Positions 3,516 to 37,016 of a stretch of DNA of 64,000 nucleotides are shown here, in pieces. Both the position numbers and the translations under genes were made by a program. Within the stretch, counting starts at the first letter, position 1, and the number at the start of each line of letters is the position of its first letter. The notes below the pieces were generated by a model. It made no database searches, had not been told where the DNA came from, and saw nothing but the letters and a program-made list of their open reading frames with translations. The stretch lies in assembly GCF_002435145.1 (NCBI RefSeq), contig NZ_DJLT01000115.1. One strand, given 5' to 3'. Source of the DNA: Neptuniibacter sp. UBA6509. Its GTDB lineage: Bacteria; Pseudomonadota; Gammaproteobacteria; Pseudomonadales; Balneatricaceae.

Positions 3516-4526
3516 ATGAATTTTAAGAAAGCGCTTGCGATCGGTTTGTTCATGGGTGTTGCAGGTCAGGCTGCAGCAGAGACTACATTACGTGTCGCTA
3601 GCTGGTTACCACCTACACATCCACAGAACGCGGTTGTTTGGCCAACATGGTCTAAATGGGTTGAAGAAGCGACTGAAGGTCGCGTAAAAGTTGCCATTGA
3701 GTACGGCATGGGACACCCAAAAACAATGTTTGAATTAGTAGAAGATGGCGTAGTTGACGCATCGTTCTCCTACCACGGCTATGTGCCGGGTCGTTTTAAA
3801 CTGACTCAAGCAGTTGAACAGCCTCTTCTAGGTACAAGCGCTGAAGCGGCATCTGTTGCTCACTGGAAGATTCATAACAAATACTTCGCAAAAGCGAATG
3901 AGCATGATGGCCTAGAAGTTATCGGTTTGTTCACACATGGACCAGGCCAGATTCAAATGGCTAAGCCTGTTACATCCCTTGCTGATCTTAAAGGTAAGAA
4001 GATCCGTTTAGGCGGTGGTGTTCAGGGTGAAATCGGTCACCGTATGGGCGTTACTGCAGTAGGTGCACCTGCACCGAAAGTATACGAAATGATGCAGCAA
4101 GGTGTTATCGACGGTGTCTTCATCCCAATGGGTGAGCAGAAGTCTCTACGTCTTAAAGAAGTTGCAACTAACGTTGTTGCACTACCAGGTGGCATGTACT
4201 TAGGTAGTTTCGGTATCTTCATGAATCCAGATTTCCTAGCTGACCTTGATGCTAAAGATCGTGACGCGATCATGAGTGTTTCTGGCGAGAAACTATCTGC
4301 GATGGCTGGTAAAGCTTGGGATGCAGGTGATGCAGCAGGTCTGGAAGCTTCTAAAGACGCAGGCGTAAACATCACTATGGTTAAAGAAGGCGATGCACTT
4401 GCAAATGAATTTGTCGCTTTAACTAAAGGTATGGATGAAGCGTTCCTGAAATCTGTAGCTGATCGTGGTGTTGATGCAAAAGCTGCATTGACTGAACTGC
4501 GTGAAGTTGCGCGCAGCTACAAGTAA
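3516..4526 (+). CDS. dctP: TRAP transporter substrate-binding protein
   Basis: Signal peptide, LRVASWLPPTH, DLKGKKIR, YEMMQQGVIDG; start placed at ATG 3516 after AGAGGA. Confidence 0.9.
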   Translation: MNFKKALAIGLFMGVAGQAAAETTLRVASWLPPTHPQNAVVWPTWSKWVEEATEGRVKVAIEYGMGHPKTMFELVEDGVVDASFSYHGYVPGRFKLTQAVEQPLLGTSAEAASVAHWKIHNKYFAKANEHDGLEVIGLFTHGPGQIQMAKPVTSLADLKGKKIRLGGGVQGEIGHRMGVTAVGAPAPKVYEMMQQGVIDGVFIPMGEQKSLRLKEVATNVVALPGGMYLGSFGIFMNPDFLADLDAKDRDAIMSVSGEKLSAMAGKAWDAGDAAGLEASKDAGVNITMVKEGDALANEFVALTKGMDEAFLKSVADRGVDAKAALTELREVARSYK

Positions 4527-30994: not shown

Positions 30995-31161
30995 TAAAAC
31001 TGGTCCCGTAGTTCTTGTGTTGCGTCCTTAATGTTTTGGCCGGTAATAGCAGCGTTAATGATCACTACTGTGAGCATGAACAGATAGGTTCCACAGATGA
31101 CGCTGAGGAATATTGCCGCAGCGATGCTTAGGAAGAATGAGTCATTCATAAATACGTCCAT
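30994..31161 (-). CDS. 55-aa small membrane protein (not in the ORF track)
   Basis: Hand translation MDVFMNDSFFLSIAAAIFLSVICGTYLFMLTVVIINAAITGQNIKDATQELRDQF; fills the gap exactly and its stop overlaps the next start. Confidence 0.6.
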   Translation of the reverse strand: MDVFMNDSFFLSIAAAIFLSVICGTYLFMLTVVIINAAITGQNIKDATQELRDQF

Positions 31162-31700: not shown

Positions 31701-31760
31701 AATCACATTTTGTGAATAATTTAAAACACGAATCGTGTTTAGTCAACACAAATCGTGTTT
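31701..31760 (-). promoter_or_regulatory. OL/PL: leftward promoter with 17-bp operators
   Basis: Minus-strand TTGACT(31746-41)-N17-TAAATT(31723-18); operators AAACACG-AAT-CGTGTTT (31724-40, exactly the spacer), CAACACA-AAT-CGTGTTT (31744-60), weaker AATCACA-TTT-TGTGAAT (31701-17). Confidence 0.8.
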
Positions 31761-31837
31761 TTGGTTTTTGTTTGAAGTGGTTAAGCTTTGGTTTGTGTCT
31801 GCAATGGTCGCGAATGGAGTCTTGAAACAGGGAGTGG

Positions 31838-32434: not shown

Positions 32435-32515
32435 TTTTTAAAAGTGGATGGCGCTGGGATTTTTAAATGGCGGTTGTTGCCAAGTGATTCGTGCTGTTGT
32501 TTATTCTTGAGGTAA

Positions 32516-33253
32516 ATGCTGTTGATTGAAGAAATAACCTCCATTGAAGGGCGTTTGAGTGAAGACAAGGGTATGGTTATGCCTTTTGTTTGTACGGCGG
32601 GTGGGCGCTCTTTTTATGCGAAGGGCTCGAACACATTAGCGGTAGGGCTTATTAATGAGCTGGTGTGTGCACACTTGGCGCGTGCATTTGGGCTTCCGGT
32701 ACCGGATTTCGAAGTGCTTCGAATGGATGAGTTGCTGAAGGATGTTGTTTCGCCGGATTGGGCATTTGATCTACAATATGAGTATCTATTTGGTTCTGCT
32801 TCGGTTGTGCCTTGTGAGAAGATTACGCTTTCGGATGTGGGGATTTTTGCTCCTGAGTTGCGTAGGGATTTAATTGTTTTTGATGCGTGGGTTCGGAATG
32901 AAGATCGATCGTTAACTGAGCTTGATGGTAATCCTAATTTGTTAGTTACTTTGCCTGGCAAAGAGCTTATGGTTATTGACCATAATTTGGCGTTTGATGA
33001 TGGGTTCAATGAGGTAGATTTTAGGCAGATGCATGTTTTTGCGGGGGTGCTTAAAGAGCTTCCAGTGCAATTGCCTGAGCAGGCTGATTATGCGGTTCGC
33101 TTTGATGCTGCGCTAATTATTTTGGATGAAGTGTTTGATCTAATACCGGCTGAGTGGTTAGAATCTCTACCTGATCCTGATGGGTATTTAAAGAAGATTT
33201 CTCAAAGGCTGGGGAATTATAAACAAGATTGTTTTTGGGGGTTGCTGTCATGA
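32516..33253 (+). CDS. HipA-like (HipA_2-type) kinase
   Basis: FYAKG (ATP Lys), NELVCAHLARAFGLPVP, VFDAWVRNEDR, NPNLL, VIDHNLAF. Confidence 0.8.
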   Translation: MLLIEEITSIEGRLSEDKGMVMPFVCTAGGRSFYAKGSNTLAVGLINELVCAHLARAFGLPVPDFEVLRMDELLKDVVSPDWAFDLQYEYLFGSASVVPCEKITLSDVGIFAPELRRDLIVFDAWVRNEDRSLTELDGNPNLLVTLPGKELMVIDHNLAFDDGFNEVDFRQMHVFAGVLKELPVQLPEQADYAVRFDAALIILDEVFDLIPAEWLESLPDPDGYLKKISQRLGNYKQDCFWGLLS

Positions 33254-34113
33254 GTAAATATGCATGCCAGTACAAAATAATAAGGTTTGCGCCTTACGAT
33301 GAAACGGGAGAGTTCGCCAATATTGGTGTGGCTTTGTTTTGTCCTGCGAGCCGTGATCTGAAATTTAAGCTTGCTCCGAAGCGCTTCGGTCGTATTACCA
33401 GCTTTTTTGATGCTATGGACCCTGCAGTTTATAAAGGAACAATAGATCACCTTAACGCAGAGTTGGGCCGCTTCCAGCGTTTTGTGGACGTAGATACCCC
33501 GGTGGATTTGGCTAAGCAGGTGTTTGGTGATCTTATGAGGGAGAAGGGTTCAATACTTCGTTTCTCTGATATGGCTGTATTGCTTACAGAGGACATGGAC
33601 GATGCATTGAATGGTCTTTATGATCACCATGTTCAGCGGAAGTTTATCACTCGTACTCATCGTGAACAGCATATGGTGACGCGTTTAAGAGACACTTTGC
33701 AGCGCTTTGATCTTCAGAAAGCGTTTAAGCAAAGTAAGCTGACAGATGGTTTGCATGAGGCGAATTTTCCTTTTGTTCGTGGGGAATCTGTTAATCCATT
33801 AGGGGCGATCAAGCCTTTGGCTTTTGATCAAAAAGCAAAGAAGGGTGTCGTTGAAAGTGCTGATCAGTGGTATGTGAAGCTAAGAAGTTTGGTTGATGCT
33901 AATGTTATTGACCCAGAGATGTTGCTTGTAAGTATGGCTGATCCTTGCTTGGCTGATAAAGCTGACAATGATTTGGTTGGTGGGTATTTAAAGCGGATCA
34001 GAAGTGATTTAAATAGCCTGGGTATAAATGCAGTGCGTGCTGATGATGCGGGGGCTGTTAATGCCTTTATGCAGATTCAGGCAGGCTTGGAAAGCCAAAC
34101 TCTTAGTCATTGA
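33250..34113 (+). CDS. DUF3037 domain protein
   Basis: YKIIRFAPYDETGEFANIGV N-terminal motif; ATGA-coupled to the kinase stop. Confidence 0.75.
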   Translation: MSKYACQYKIIRFAPYDETGEFANIGVALFCPASRDLKFKLAPKRFGRITSFFDAMDPAVYKGTIDHLNAELGRFQRFVDVDTPVDLAKQVFGDLMREKGSILRFSDMAVLLTEDMDDALNGLYDHHVQRKFITRTHREQHMVTRLRDTLQRFDLQKAFKQSKLTDGLHEANFPFVRGESVNPLGAIKPLAFDQKAKKGVVESADQWYVKLRSLVDANVIDPEMLLVSMADPCLADKADNDLVGGYLKRIRSDLNSLGINAVRADDAGAVNAFMQIQAGLESQTLSH

Positions 34114-34125
34114 TTACTAACATTT

Positions 34126-34157
34126 TTAAAAAGCCCGCTTTTGCGGGTTTTTTTATT
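34126..34157. terminator. Bidirectional terminator between the DUF3037 gene and the Xre gene
   Basis: AAAAAGCCCGC-TTTT-GCGGGTTTTTTT. Confidence 0.75.
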
Positions 34158-34461
34158 GGATGTTTTTTATTAGTGTGCATATGGTCTTTCTTATTGAGGA
34201 TGGCATTTTTCTTAGTTTCATTATCAGTTGATATTCTTGTTTTAGCAGCCCCTGTTTTCTCTCTCGTCCTGTCACATAATAATCAAGCGTGATGTTCAGC
34301 TCACCGCATAACTTCGCTGCAGTGTCTAATGTGCGCGGTTCTTTGTCGGCTTCCCAGCCTTTGTATGTTGAAACGGCGATATGTAATGCTTTTGCCACTT
34401 CTGACTGTGTTTTCCCTGTCGCTATTCTCGCTTGTTTGAGTCGAATGCTTTTGTTTTTCAC
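34153..34461 (-). CDS. Xre-family HTH regulator
   Basis: RLKQARIATGKTQSEVAKALHIAVSTYKGWE...PRTLDTAAKLC. Confidence 0.8.
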   Translation of the reverse strand: MKNKSIRLKQARIATGKTQSEVAKALHIAVSTYKGWEADKEPRTLDTAAKLCGELNITLDYYVTGRERKQGLLKQEYQLIMKLRKMPSSIRKTICTLIKNIQ

Positions 34462-34683
34462 TGTTTGTTTTTAATGTGTTTGTGGTGTTGCTTGCAAGAA
34501 AGGTTGTTTTAAAGCGACCTTTGTTGGCATTTGGTATCTGTAGTGCGTCTGTTGTTGGTGTTTTAATGCGGTTGTTGGGTATATTTCGGGGTTCGGTCTG
34601 AACGTGTGTTCGGGTATTAATTCTGCTTTGTATCAGACGGGTTGTGTACCTGCTTGATCTGTTAGTTAGACAGGGACAGTTGT

Positions 34684-34881
34684 ATGTTTGAGGTTGTACG
34701 GAATGAGGGTGTGGTTGATATTGGTACTGCCCATCAGAGGATGGTTGAGGCTGAGGGTTTGTTGAGGGCTAGGATTGGTCTGTCTGCTCTAACGGGTGTG
34801 CCGGATGATGAGTATGTTCGCCTAGCAATGGAGTTGCGTGCGCAGGAGAGTGCCTGGGCGAAGCGGTGGGGGGTTAAATAG
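34684..34881 (+). CDS. 65-aa small protein, divergent from Xre and convergent with cI
   Basis: ATG preceded by GGGA; 8-bp 3' overlap with the repressor gene. Confidence 0.5.
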   Translation: MFEVVRNEGVVDIGTAHQRMVEAEGLLRARIGLSALTGVPDDEYVRLAMELRAQESAWAKRWGVK

Positions 34882-35344
34882 CGGTGTATAGGGAGGCGAG
34901 TGCGGCTTCTCTTGAGTTTGATATGTCTTTGGCTGTTAGGTTTTCTGCTGTGTATGCGGCAAAGCCTGCAGCTATCATTTTTGCGCGTTGTTCTGCGTTC
35001 AGTTTTAGGCCTTCTTCTAGGCTGATCTTTTCTGTTTGTAAAATGACTTCTCGAAGCAGCTCTATCTGAGCAGCTGATAGCTTGTTGCGTGATTCGTATG
35101 AGGGTTGGCTTTCTTCGGCTGAGGCGTGTGTGAGGGCTTCTTGGCCGTAGAAGAATAGGATGTTTTTGTTTAGCGCTTTAGCGATTACTGCAATATCGGA
35201 TGCTGAGGGGCTTCTTACGTCTTTTTCGTAATTACCGATTCTGCTTTGGGGGTTGCCTGTTGTCCAGCCACACTTAATACCCAGCTGCTCCTGTGTGAGC
35301 GCTGCCTCGGTTCTCGCTGATTTAATCTTTTCGCCAAAATTCAT
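34874..35344 (-). CDS. CI-like immunity repressor without S24 peptidase domain
   Basis: KIKSARTEAALTQEQLG...PQSRIGNYEKDVRSP HTH; divergent from cro across three operators; 156 aa. Confidence 0.8.
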   Translation of the reverse strand: MNFGEKIKSARTEAALTQEQLGIKCGWTTGNPQSRIGNYEKDVRSPSASDIAVIAKALNKNILFFYGQEALTHASAEESQPSYESRNKLSAAQIELLREVILQTEKISLEEGLKLNAEQRAKMIAAGFAAYTAENLTAKDISNSREAALASLYTAI

Positions 35345-35423
35345 AAATCTAATCTTATCACGCTATGTGTTATGTTATAAAACACGAAATGTGTTGACCG
35401 TAAAACACGTTGTGTGTTTTTAT
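35345..35423. promoter_or_regulatory. OR with three 17-bp operators, PRM and PR
   Basis: TATCACG-CTA-TGTGTTA (35356-72), AAACACG-AAA-TGTGTTG (35380-96), AAACACG-TTG-TGTGTTT (35403-19); PRM extended -10 TGaTAAGAT on the minus strand; PR -35 TTGACC at 35394-99 (its -10 is weak). Confidence 0.8.
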
Positions 35424-35430
35424 ATGCCCT

Positions 35431-35652
35431 ATGAATAAAATAGCTGAGTTTAGAAAGCTAAAAAGTTTGTCTCAGGCGGAGTTGGGTCGTTCGTTTGATC
35501 CGCCGTTAAGGCAGTCGGCGGTTTCCAATCATGAGGTTGGAGTGCGGACTCCTGATGTTTATCAAGCTTTGCATTATGCAAGGGTGCTTGATGTTTCGGT
35601 CGAGAGACTTTTTCCATCAATAAGTGGCAACTCTAATGTATCGGCGGCTTAG
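35431..35652 (+). CDS. Cro-like HTH protein
   Basis: MNKIAEFRKLKSLSQAELG...QSAVSNHEVGVRTP; ATG 35431. Confidence 0.78.
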   Translation: MNKIAEFRKLKSLSQAELGRSFDPPLRQSAVSNHEVGVRTPDVYQALHYARVLDVSVERLFPSISGNSNVSAA

Positions 35653-35706
35653 TCGAAACATGCGTGTATCTAAAATTGTGCAGGGTAGGTAAAGAGGTTT
35701 TGGGAA

Positions 35707-36201
35707 ATGACAGCTAAGAAAAGACATAAGGATCATGGTGGGGTCTTGACCATACGTCAGGCTTTGTACCACGCGGTGCATGATTACCGAAACGGGGCGG
35801 GGTTGCCTTCTTTTTGTGCTGATTTGGGTGTGGGGTCGGCTGCGTATTTTGGTCAAAAGATTAATCTGCGTGATGAGACGGCTAGCCCTACGCTTCGGGA
35901 TTTTGAGTTGATTTTAGATGGTACGCAAGACCCGCGTATTTTGACTGCAGTTTGTGAGCCGGTTGGGGCTGCGTGGAACTTCCGCGATGAGTTGCCTGAG
36001 GTTCAGGGTGATTTGGGTGTGCTGGAGCGTGGATCTAGATTGATGATTTCTGCGTCTGCAGTGATTGATGAGTTGGTGAAGGGGTTGGCGGATGGTGAGC
36101 TTGATGCTGATGAGATGGCGCGGGTACGGCAAAAGATTCACGACTTGCAGCGAGATATGCAGCTTATTCGTCAAACGGCTGATCAGTTTGTTGCTGGGTA
36201 A
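35707..36201 (+). CDS. Phage regulatory protein CII-like
   Basis: ALYHAVHDY, KINLRDE, LADGELDADE...V pattern; position after cro. Confidence 0.65.
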   Translation: MTAKKRHKDHGGVLTIRQALYHAVHDYRNGAGLPSFCADLGVGSAAYFGQKINLRDETASPTLRDFELILDGTQDPRILTAVCEPVGAAWNFRDELPEVQGDLGVLERGSRLMISASAVIDELVKGLADGELDADEMARVRQKIHDLQRDMQLIRQTADQFVAG

Positions 36202-36219
36202 ATTTCATTATTTGAGGGA

Positions 36220-37016
36220 TTGAAAATGAAGGTTATAGGTCTGGTTGGAGGGCGCGGGGTGGGCAAATCTTGCGTTGCTGATGTGGTTGTTGAGGTTACT
36301 GAAAATAGCTATTGCCGTGAGTTTTATTCGCCGGTTAGGCGTTTTTTGTTGGCGGCGTTTGGTAATGCTGATTTGGTTGTGGCTACCCGTGAGTTGTTTG
36401 GTTTGACGTTTGAGCAGATTGGTGGGGCGAGGAGCGTGATGTGGTTGATCCGCTTTGGTTGGCGTCTCCTTCGCAATTATATGATCACGTTACGCGTTTG
36501 ATGTATCAGCGTTTTGGTGATGAGTTGGAGCGTTGTTTGGCTGGAGAGGTTTTGTTGAACCCGGCGTCTTTGTGTAATGACGATTTGGTTGATGATGTTA
36601 TGCCTGCTTTTGGGCTTTCTGCTTCGGATTTAATGCGAGATGTGGTGGTTAGGCTTGAGCTTTTATTTGGGCCTGATTTGTTGGTTAAGCGTGCAAGGCG
36701 TGAACTTGAGTTGGTTGTGGCTGAGTCTTTAGAAAAGGGTGAGCCGCTGCCTGAGTTGGTGGTGTTTAGTGATGCTGAACGGTTGGATTTTGCTGATTTT
36801 GTAGCTGATTTGGGTGTGCTGGTTGAGGTTATTCGACCGGGGTTTGAGCGTACAGGTGTTTCTTATGAGCGGGTGCGTGGTCGGTTGCATAACGAGGCTA
36901 ATCATTATGGGCTTGAGTGGCATTCGCGTTACAACGTTGATGATTGGTTGCGTTCGGCGTTGCCCTTTGATCCTGCTGTTTATGGTGTGGGTGAGTGTTT
37001 TGAGAGGGCTGTGTGA
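36220..37016 (+). pseudogene. Deoxynucleoside monophosphate kinase split by a single-base frameshift
   Basis: ORF1 P-loop IGLVGGRGVGKS; ORF2 GLSASDLM...GPDLLVK...VVFSD...EVIRPG; frames overlap at 36414-36501. Confidence 0.65.

Follow-up and report, generated by a model that had tools for sequence, protein, structure and literature searches.

A small conserved gene convergent with a non-cleavable cI-like repressor, a candidate antirepressor in a group of marine prophages

We have analysed a stretch of 64,000 nucleotides (nt), hereafter the window, from contig NZ_DJLT01000115.1 of Neptuniibacter sp. UBA6509 (assembly GCF_002435145.1), focussing on three neighbouring genes of a prophage: an Xre-family regulator, an open reading frame (ORF) of 65 amino acids (aa), and a cI-like repressor. 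The region can be recognised as the immunity region of a lambdoid phage (Table 1). A first-pass annotation of this DNA had described the Xre gene (minus strand) and the 65-aa ORF (plus strand) as divergent across a 222-bp spacer, and all its coordinates were correct. At its other end the small ORF runs into the 3' end of cI, the two overlapping by 8 bp (TTAAATAG). Between cI and the left operator (OL) there is a cassette of ca. 3 kb made up of a VasI-like gene, HipA_2 and DUF3037 genes (all on the plus strand), a terminator, the Xre gene, the spacer and the small ORF. The most economical reading of this arrangement, and in our opinion the best one, is that the small ORF encodes an effector directed at cI, a proposal that the comparisons described below partly support.

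The 65-aa ORF had no match in Pfam, PHROGs or NCBIfam. A word-indexed protein search matched it to itself alone, tblastn against phage records gave one chance-level match, and when the ORF or its profile was searched for in 41 relatives and in 400 genomes belonging to the class, the window's own genome was the sole one to contain it. Scans of genome contigs and metagenome contigs with small-ORF or cI profiles confirmed nothing. The homologues came from a HMMER run against 1.84 billion representative proteins (matches counted at E<=1e-3), which gave 11 matches: the query, eight proteins of 63-95 aa (the longest with an over-called N-terminus), a fusion protein of 310 aa and a low-complexity repeat protein that is probably spurious. 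In total, twelve lineages were read (the window, L006, L008, L010, L014, L021, L022, L024, L025, L027, L050 and L051), and the 11 prophage lineages other than the window all have a homologue of 63-70 aa at the same position. Identity to the window ORF is 38-52% across lineages, but about 19-22% for L006. Starting from cI the result was the same: in every context read for the cI homologues (53-62% identity), a convergent ORF of 63-67 aa, 46-52% identical to that of the window, overlaps the 3' end of cI. Eight lineages have a tail-to-tail overlap of 8 bp and three have one of 20-36 bp, while the short contig of L050 shows the convergent cI 3' end with the cI stop outside the contig. The earlier proposal had been made to depend on conservation of the ORF and on linkage of the Xre/ORF pair to cI. 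Homologues in 11 other lineages bear out the first, and in all loci that extend to the gene following the small ORF, the pair was linked to cI. Two of the lineages, L006 and L025, come from one metagenome-assembled genome (GCA_025800245.1, Amphritea sp.), which therefore holds two different prophages with the cI/small-ORF/Xre module; their small ORFs are strongly diverged and could serve as a natural case of cross-talk or specificity.

Ten members of the family share the invariant residues E22, R30, L33, D41, E55, W58, R61 and W62, and have in common, near the C-terminus, the motif WAKRW (E..WAKRWGVK in the window). The AlphaFold2 model of the small protein is a two-helix hairpin (helices 13-35 and 41-62) with a predicted local distance difference test score of 86.8. 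The Shine-Dalgarno sequence of the gene is AGGGA in the window, weaker than the AGGAGG of its relatives. Judged by its homologues, the 65-aa ORF is a genuine gene under conservation, far beyond what could be expected by chance. The other public copies of the same prophage are at least 99.9% identical and thus uninformative on selection.

A terminator scan found no terminator between the small ORF and cI, in agreement with the first description of the locus, and the overlapping layout that forces antisense read-through into cI, also pointed out there, is conserved across lineages. The small gene might be mainly a transcription unit, with a promoter that DNA damage switches on and that is directed into the 3' end of cI; cI expression would be lowered by antisense RNA or by the convergence of the two transcripts, the peptide being secondary. 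The overlap of 8-36 bp without a terminator, found in every lineage whose locus contains cI, is what such a device would look like. However, the invariant residues, the strong Shine-Dalgarno of the relatives and the confident fold show selection on the protein, and a reduced synthesis of cI would by itself be slow to act against a stable repressor. Moreover, hairpins followed by T-rich tracts are found on the small-ORF strand 77-102 nt inside cI in four lineages (the window, L022, L024 and L025), and they may stop the transcript early. We consider this explanation very unlikely. The hairpin is encoded by the cI codons of a conserved Q(R/K)A(K/R).IA motif (34983-34998 in the window), with a stem of 9-10 bp in L024 and L025 and of 5 bp in the window, and could function as a terminator lying inside the cI gene in antisense orientation. 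In the window, weak hairpins inside cI (5 sites versus 2.4+/-1.7 in shuffled sequences) are not above background.

In the window cI, Pfam detects an HTH_3 (helix-turn-helix) domain and no S24 peptidase, and the same is true of six homologues, with HTH domains only and S24 absent from all the cI partners of the small gene. The AlphaFold2 model of cI has a five-helix HTH domain, a disordered linker (residues 72-90 approximately) and an all-helical C-terminal domain of four helices. With no S24 domain in Pfam and a helical C-terminal domain in the model, the initial assertion that this CI cannot self-cleave is well founded. The cI partners carry at least four unrelated types of DNA-binding domain at the N-terminus and one shared C-terminal domain, with the common motif QIELLREVI...QRAK.IAA.F....LTA.DL. 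Between the window and L022, for example, identity is 36% in the N-terminal domain, 78% in the C-terminal domain and 52% in the small ORF. Over all pairs of lineages, which are not independent, so that the coefficients are descriptive, the identity of the small ORF has a Spearman correlation of 0.73 with that of the cI C-terminal domain and of 0.61 with that of the N-terminal domain. The 310-aa fusion protein (P0022, L029:259-1191) consists of a Phage_pRha N-terminal domain followed by two tandem small-ORF domains, an architecture which we take to be typical of proteins annotated as antirepressors; its gene has head genes as neighbours (S49 protease, decoration protein and major capsid protein). 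The best structural matches of the cI model are to the N-terminal part of Stl from Staphylococcus aureus pathogenicity islands (E ca. 6e-4, a weak match), a repressor that is inactivated by the binding of protein partners. Mimicry of the SinI/SinR type, between the small protein and either the cI C-terminal domain or the Xre tail, was tried and discarded, with hhalign probabilities of 0.7% and 0.1%. In L025 the cI-like gene (3697-4446, minus strand) has been called as 249 aa, with 96 extra residues at the N-terminus that are similar to the N-terminal domain found in the cI-like protein of L006; either this repressor has two domains that bind DNA, or its start has been over-called.

Upstream of the small gene, 42-51 nt before its start codon, nine of the twelve lineages (nine of the 11 relatives) have a perfect LexA box, TACTGT-N8-ACAGT. 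With a position-specific scoring matrix (PSSM) built only from the SOS boxes of the window's host genome, the nine boxes score 21-26 bits. The host has a single lexA, with boxes of the CTGT-N8-ACAG type in its own promoter. A perfect 16-mer within 60 nt would be found by chance in about one in a thousand loci, and the box at the small gene is the sole strong one in those loci of 6-10 kb. A second CTGT-N8-ACAG site (ACCTGTATAAAAAAACAGCC) is present between cro and a DNMK-like gene in L010 and L014 (4638-4657 in both). Since LexA boxes lie upstream in nine lineages, the small-gene family is, by its promoter sequences, wired to the SOS response, and the description of the locus as an SOS-independent switch does not hold for the family, in which the canonical box is so frequent. 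The combination of LexA boxes with repressors that do not self-cleave follows the logic of Tum of phage 186, AntC of N15 and the Gifsy phages, and for this reason the family most likely consists of LexA-controlled antirepressors of the Tum/GfoA/AntC type.

The small protein could also have an SOS-induced function unrelated to CI, such as a RecA or LexA modulator like DinI or a division inhibitor like DicB or Kil, and merely sit in a variable slot. It has no homology to known antirepressors, and the interval between cI and the leftward promoter PL is a known site of accessory genes, which in the window also carries HipA_2/DUF3037. In Gifsy a dinI homologue is found under the same LexA box as the antirepressor (PMC3121763). 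Nevertheless, such a function would leave no visible route from SOS to derepression, despite the sole LexA box being here, and the gene is fixed to the C-terminal end of cI while everything upstream varies. We find an unrelated function quite unlikely, and prefer the antirepressor.

In the window the box has gone. The spacer contains no CTG-N10-CAG, and its best PSSM score is -9.6 bits, or 6.2 bits with the host-only matrix, corresponding to no SOS box; the 6.2-bit site overlaps the Xre start codon and is a left half-site alone. The position aligned under the boxes of the relatives is given in Table 1. Elsewhere in the prophage part of the window, no site exceeds 8.2 bits and none is a credible SOS box. 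The best one (TACTGTGAGCATGAACAGAT, 31066-31085, 8.2 bits) is probably due to chance; it falls inside an ORF of the early-left operon that encodes 55 aa, hydrophobic in character, and that comes just downstream of a 104-aa protein weakly matching the ANT domain. Three other candidates in the spacer were rejected: CTGT-N7-ACAG (34661-34675) and CTG-N8-CAG (34623-34636) as degenerate SOS boxes, both with wrong spacing and negative PSSM scores, and GAAC-N4-GTTC as a Gram-positive-type LexA (Cheo) box, given the box type of the single host lexA. On this comparison the window copy has lost its LexA box and, for this prophage alone, appears uncoupled from SOS. Independence from SOS, untenable for the family, is therefore plausible for the window copy. 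The other box-less lineages are L051, in which Xre is kept, and L027, in which an insertion sequence transposase has been inserted about 360 nt upstream.

The Xre protein matches Pfam HTH_3 well (E=9e-10, 38.9 bits versus a gathering cut-off of 23). It also matches the NCBIfam model phage_RstR (NF041951) over nearly all its length (residues 6-100 on model positions 5-98 of 108; 48.4 bits, E=9.5e-13). The curated cut-off is 80 bits, so that it is not an RstR member by the NCBI criterion. It can be described as RstR-like across its full length, with a conserved C-terminal tail LPxxIR...LI. Five orthologues could be aligned (L006, L021, L022, L024 and L025; 32-50% identity), each divergent from the small gene, and two more were read unaligned (L050 and L051), which with the window makes 8 of the 12 lineages. 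A scan of IMG/VR with the Xre profile gave 20 loci with one orthologue, on the L021 contig. Two of these loci read in detail (L034 and L032) have generic HTH repressors in unrelated contexts, and the remaining ones lacked every marker of the module (cI C-terminal domain, small gene and LexA box). The orthologues were thus found solely in the context of the three genes cI, small gene and Xre. In the window, Xre has a GTG start and no Shine-Dalgarno, which is GGAGAA in L006, L024 and L025. On the minus strand (34459-34497) there is a TTGCAA, followed after 17 bp by a TTAAAA that ends 7 nt before the Xre start codon. The sequence suggests that the window Xre mRNA is leaderless.

The distribution of Xre and LexA boxes bears on the function of the regulator. 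Of the eight lineages with Xre, six also carry a perfect LexA box at the small gene; the three intact lineages without Xre all have a box, and the two intact ones without a box (the window and L051) both have Xre. Over just twelve lineages, this pattern, LexA box or Xre but at least one of them, is suggestive of two repressors and fits them better than a repressor and an obligatory activator. Because box-less intact lineages keep Xre and intact Xre-less ones have a box, it is likelier that Xre is a co-repressor, a second lock for the small gene, than that it is the gene's activator or trigger; the full-length similarity to RstR also argues for a repressor. Xre may instead be an activating transcription factor (TF) that switches on the small gene under a non-SOS cue, the small protein then inactivating CI, as in the modules formed by a TF and a small ORF (TF-smORF) in Vibrio and Aeromonas phages, such as VqmA-Phi/Qtip. 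The divergent layout of TF and small ORF beside cI is kept in eight of the 12 lineages, the window and L051 lack LexA boxes, and TF-smORF modules are known, the XRE type being among the factors that they can employ (Silpe et al., 2023, PMC10432266). However, the perfect LexA box in six of the eight lineages with Xre means that the module as a rule is not SOS-independent, the pattern just described and the resemblance to the repressor RstR suit two repressors better, and published TF-smORF phages have an SOS-cleavable cI (PMC10432266), which is non-cleavable here. An activating Xre is in our judgement unlikely, and we retain the co-repressor.

The first-pass annotation had also drawn attention to a palindrome in the spacer, flanked by a possible promoter. 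The palindrome (GAACGTGTGTTC, 34600-34611) and the putative -35 (TTCGGT, 34592-34597) and -10 (TATTAA, 34615-34620), separated by 17 bp, are where it put them, but they are no better than chance and have no comparative support as an Xre operator. GAAC-N4-GTTC is found once in 64 kb, with about one expected, and any 4+4 palindrome with a gap of 4 nt would be expected about 0.9 times per 222 bp. The -35 matches at 2 of 6 positions and the -10 at 4 of 6, and the pair was not reported by the promoter scan. The recognition helix of Xre is almost the same in the window, L006, L024 and L025 (STYKGWE or TTYKGWE), and the GAAC palindrome is absent from the relatives with this near-identical helix, which have different palindromes at about the same place. 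What the four lineages do share are motifs close to the Xre start, the inverted repeat GCAAGAAAGG...CCTTTCTGGC and TATATT(T/C)CG. In the relatives this repeat is imperfect and about 66 nt long (GCAAGAAAGGACGCG ... CGCGTCCTTTCTGGC), with an inner hairpin, and lies 30-100 nt upstream of the Xre start (L006:4895-4975, L024:3265-3345, L025:3265-3345); the window has a shortened version (Table 1). The L024 repeat shows a compensatory change of A-T to T-A, and at the corresponding place in L050 there is a hairpin whose sequence differs. This inverted repeat may be an Xre operator pair or a hairpin in the 5' untranslated region.

The model that we favour, to which we would give a probability of roughly 0.55, is that a small two-helix protein, ancestrally under LexA control, inactivates a non-cleavable CI, with Xre as second lock, and that the window carries a box-less copy. 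In the ancestral state the small gene would be transcribed from a LexA-repressed promoter aimed at the 3' end of cI. DNA damage would remove LexA and the small protein would be made; we infer that it would then bind CI, probably at the conserved C-terminal domain, and strip it off the right (OR) and left operators. Since no terminator separates the two genes, the transcript of the small gene would continue antisense into cI and may add transcriptional interference. Xre would most likely bind the shared spacer, repressing its own promoter and that of the small gene. In the window, with the LexA box lost, Xre would remain the sole visible control on the small gene, and because of this the prophage would be either induced by an SOS-independent signal acting via Xre or weakly inducible. 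As to the original idea that the Xre/small-ORF pair is the trigger that inactivates CI, the conserved ORF tied to a non-cleavable repressor supports it, but Xre is likelier a repressor than an activator.

Several points weigh against this model. The small protein has no sequence or fold similarity to characterised antirepressors (Pfam, PHROGs, NCBIfam, PDB profile search and Foldseek): the best PDB profile match had E=0.26, and Foldseek with the model against PDB and BFVD gave nothing at E below 0.4. The co-inheritance of the small gene and the cI C-terminal domain could be plain linkage, which is conceivable because mosaic joints of lambdoid phages often fall inside cI and the small gene abuts the end that codes for the C-terminal domain. 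The conserved motifs plausibly bound by Xre adjoin the Xre gene, 100-180 bp from the promoter region of the small gene, so that the control of the small gene by Xre is deduced from synteny and the pattern across the 12 lineages. Finally, the small gene of the window may be simply silent, as it has no recognisable promoter and a weaker Shine-Dalgarno. A more ambitious version, doubtful but worth stating, would see the three-gene set as a two-input node in which LexA and the RstR-like Xre jointly gate the small protein that disables the non-cleavable CI, the window and L051 being SOS-blind variants induced only by Xre inactivation. If true, the induction logics of the Gifsy/186 type and of the TF-smORF type would be joined in one module.

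The remaining features of the region are collected in Table 1. The terminator to the left of Xre is the end point for both the HipA_2/DUF3037 operon (plus strand) and the Xre gene (minus strand); a search of Rfam with it (34125-34155) gave only sub-threshold matches, to terminator-like parts of leader and small RNA models. The pair formed by the HipA_2 kinase and DUF3037 (32516-34113) is located in the slot between cI and PL and is convergent with Xre. A pattern search for cI operators in the Xre/small-ORF spacer gave none. The region 32500-36300 had no blastn match among 50,697 phage records.

Table 1. Position of the features of the immunity region in the window
Feature	Position	Strand	Basis
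OL operator pair, same type as OR	31726-31762		pattern search
Bidirectional intrinsic terminator (A-run, CCCGC/GCGGG stem, T-run)	34125-34155		sequence and terminator scan
Xre-family regulator, 102 aa	34153-34461	-	HTH_3
Xre/small-ORF spacer, 222 bp	34462-34683		sequence
Inverted repeat CAAGAAAGGTTGTTTT/AAAGCGACCTTTGTTG by the Xre start	34495-34526		repeat search
Expected LexA-box position (-45 to -26 from start codon); reads GGGTTGTGTACCTGCTTGAT, not an SOS box	34639-34658		MAFFT alignment under the relatives' boxes
Small ORF, 65 aa	34684-34881	+	ORF and homologues
cI-like repressor, 156 aa	34874-35344	-	Pfam, model and homologues
OR operators, AAACACG-N3/4-GTGTT, between cI and cro	about 35356-35421		pattern search
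cro	35431-35652	+	right of cI
cII, phage 186 CP76 type	35707-36201	+	right of cro

Many prophage repressors have no self-cleavage domain, and here an unannotated family of small proteins is tied by position to one such type. The small gene is thus a candidate antirepressor for a group of marine prophages, with a link to SOS through the LexA box, and the box-less variants that keep Xre offer a natural comparison, both for the ways in which the signal that induces a phage is rewired or lost and for the role of Xre as a putative second lock on the antirepressor.

Among known systems, Qtip had been suggested as the parallel, but with a LexA box in 9 of 12 lineages the closest kind is instead the LexA-controlled antirepressor, represented by Tum of coliphage 186, AntC of N15 and GfoA/GftA/GfhA of the Salmonella Gifsy phages (Lemire et al., 2011, PMC3121763). 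Here as there, autocleavage domains are missing from the repressor and a canonical LexA box precedes the small gene (not in the window), and SOS would be expected to act via a protein that inactivates the repressor rather than via cleavage. The CII of the window is, besides, of the 186 CP76 type. On the other hand, no similarity in sequence or fold to Tum, AntC or GfoA is detectable, the gene described here being a candidate antirepressor, and in Gifsy the genes are located away from the immunity region, following a dinI homologue (PMC3121763), whereas ours is convergent and overlaps the 3' end of cI. With the TF-smORF modules (VqmA-Phi/Qtip of VP882 and XRE-LuxR/smORF of Aeromonas phages) there is a likeness of layout in temperate phages, a TF counter-oriented to a small ORF (ca. 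50-80 aa) across a short spacer, which is found in the window and in 7 other lineages, and in both systems the small protein is proposed to inactivate cI. The published modules, however, are additions to phages whose cI is cleavable; they act independently of SOS, and their TFs are activators (PMC10432266). In the present case cI is non-cleavable, LexA boxes accompany most of the small ORFs and the comparative pattern speaks for repression by Xre.

For the regulator there are other comparisons. Xre matches the model of RstR, the CTXphi repressor, along its full length (below the cut-off) and is likewise divergently transcribed, and as in the rstR-rstA arrangement its neighbour gene has a LexA box just upstream in 6 of the 8 Xre-bearing lineages. 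In CTXphi, LexA acts at a site that overlaps the rstR promoter (Lemire et al., PMC3121763). RstR differs in that it controls the replication genes of a filamentous phage and not a small gene beside a lambdoid cI. The immI region of P22 has a dedicated, divergent phage repressor, Mnt, that silences the antirepressor gene ant in the lysogen, which is the role that Xre would play on the small gene. The P22 system differs in its details, since Mnt and Arc are ribbon-helix-helix proteins, Ant has about 300 aa, LexA plays no part and c2 lies far from the locus. Mnt acting on ant in P22 and RstR acting with LexA in CTXphi are the known parallels for Xre as a putative second lock.

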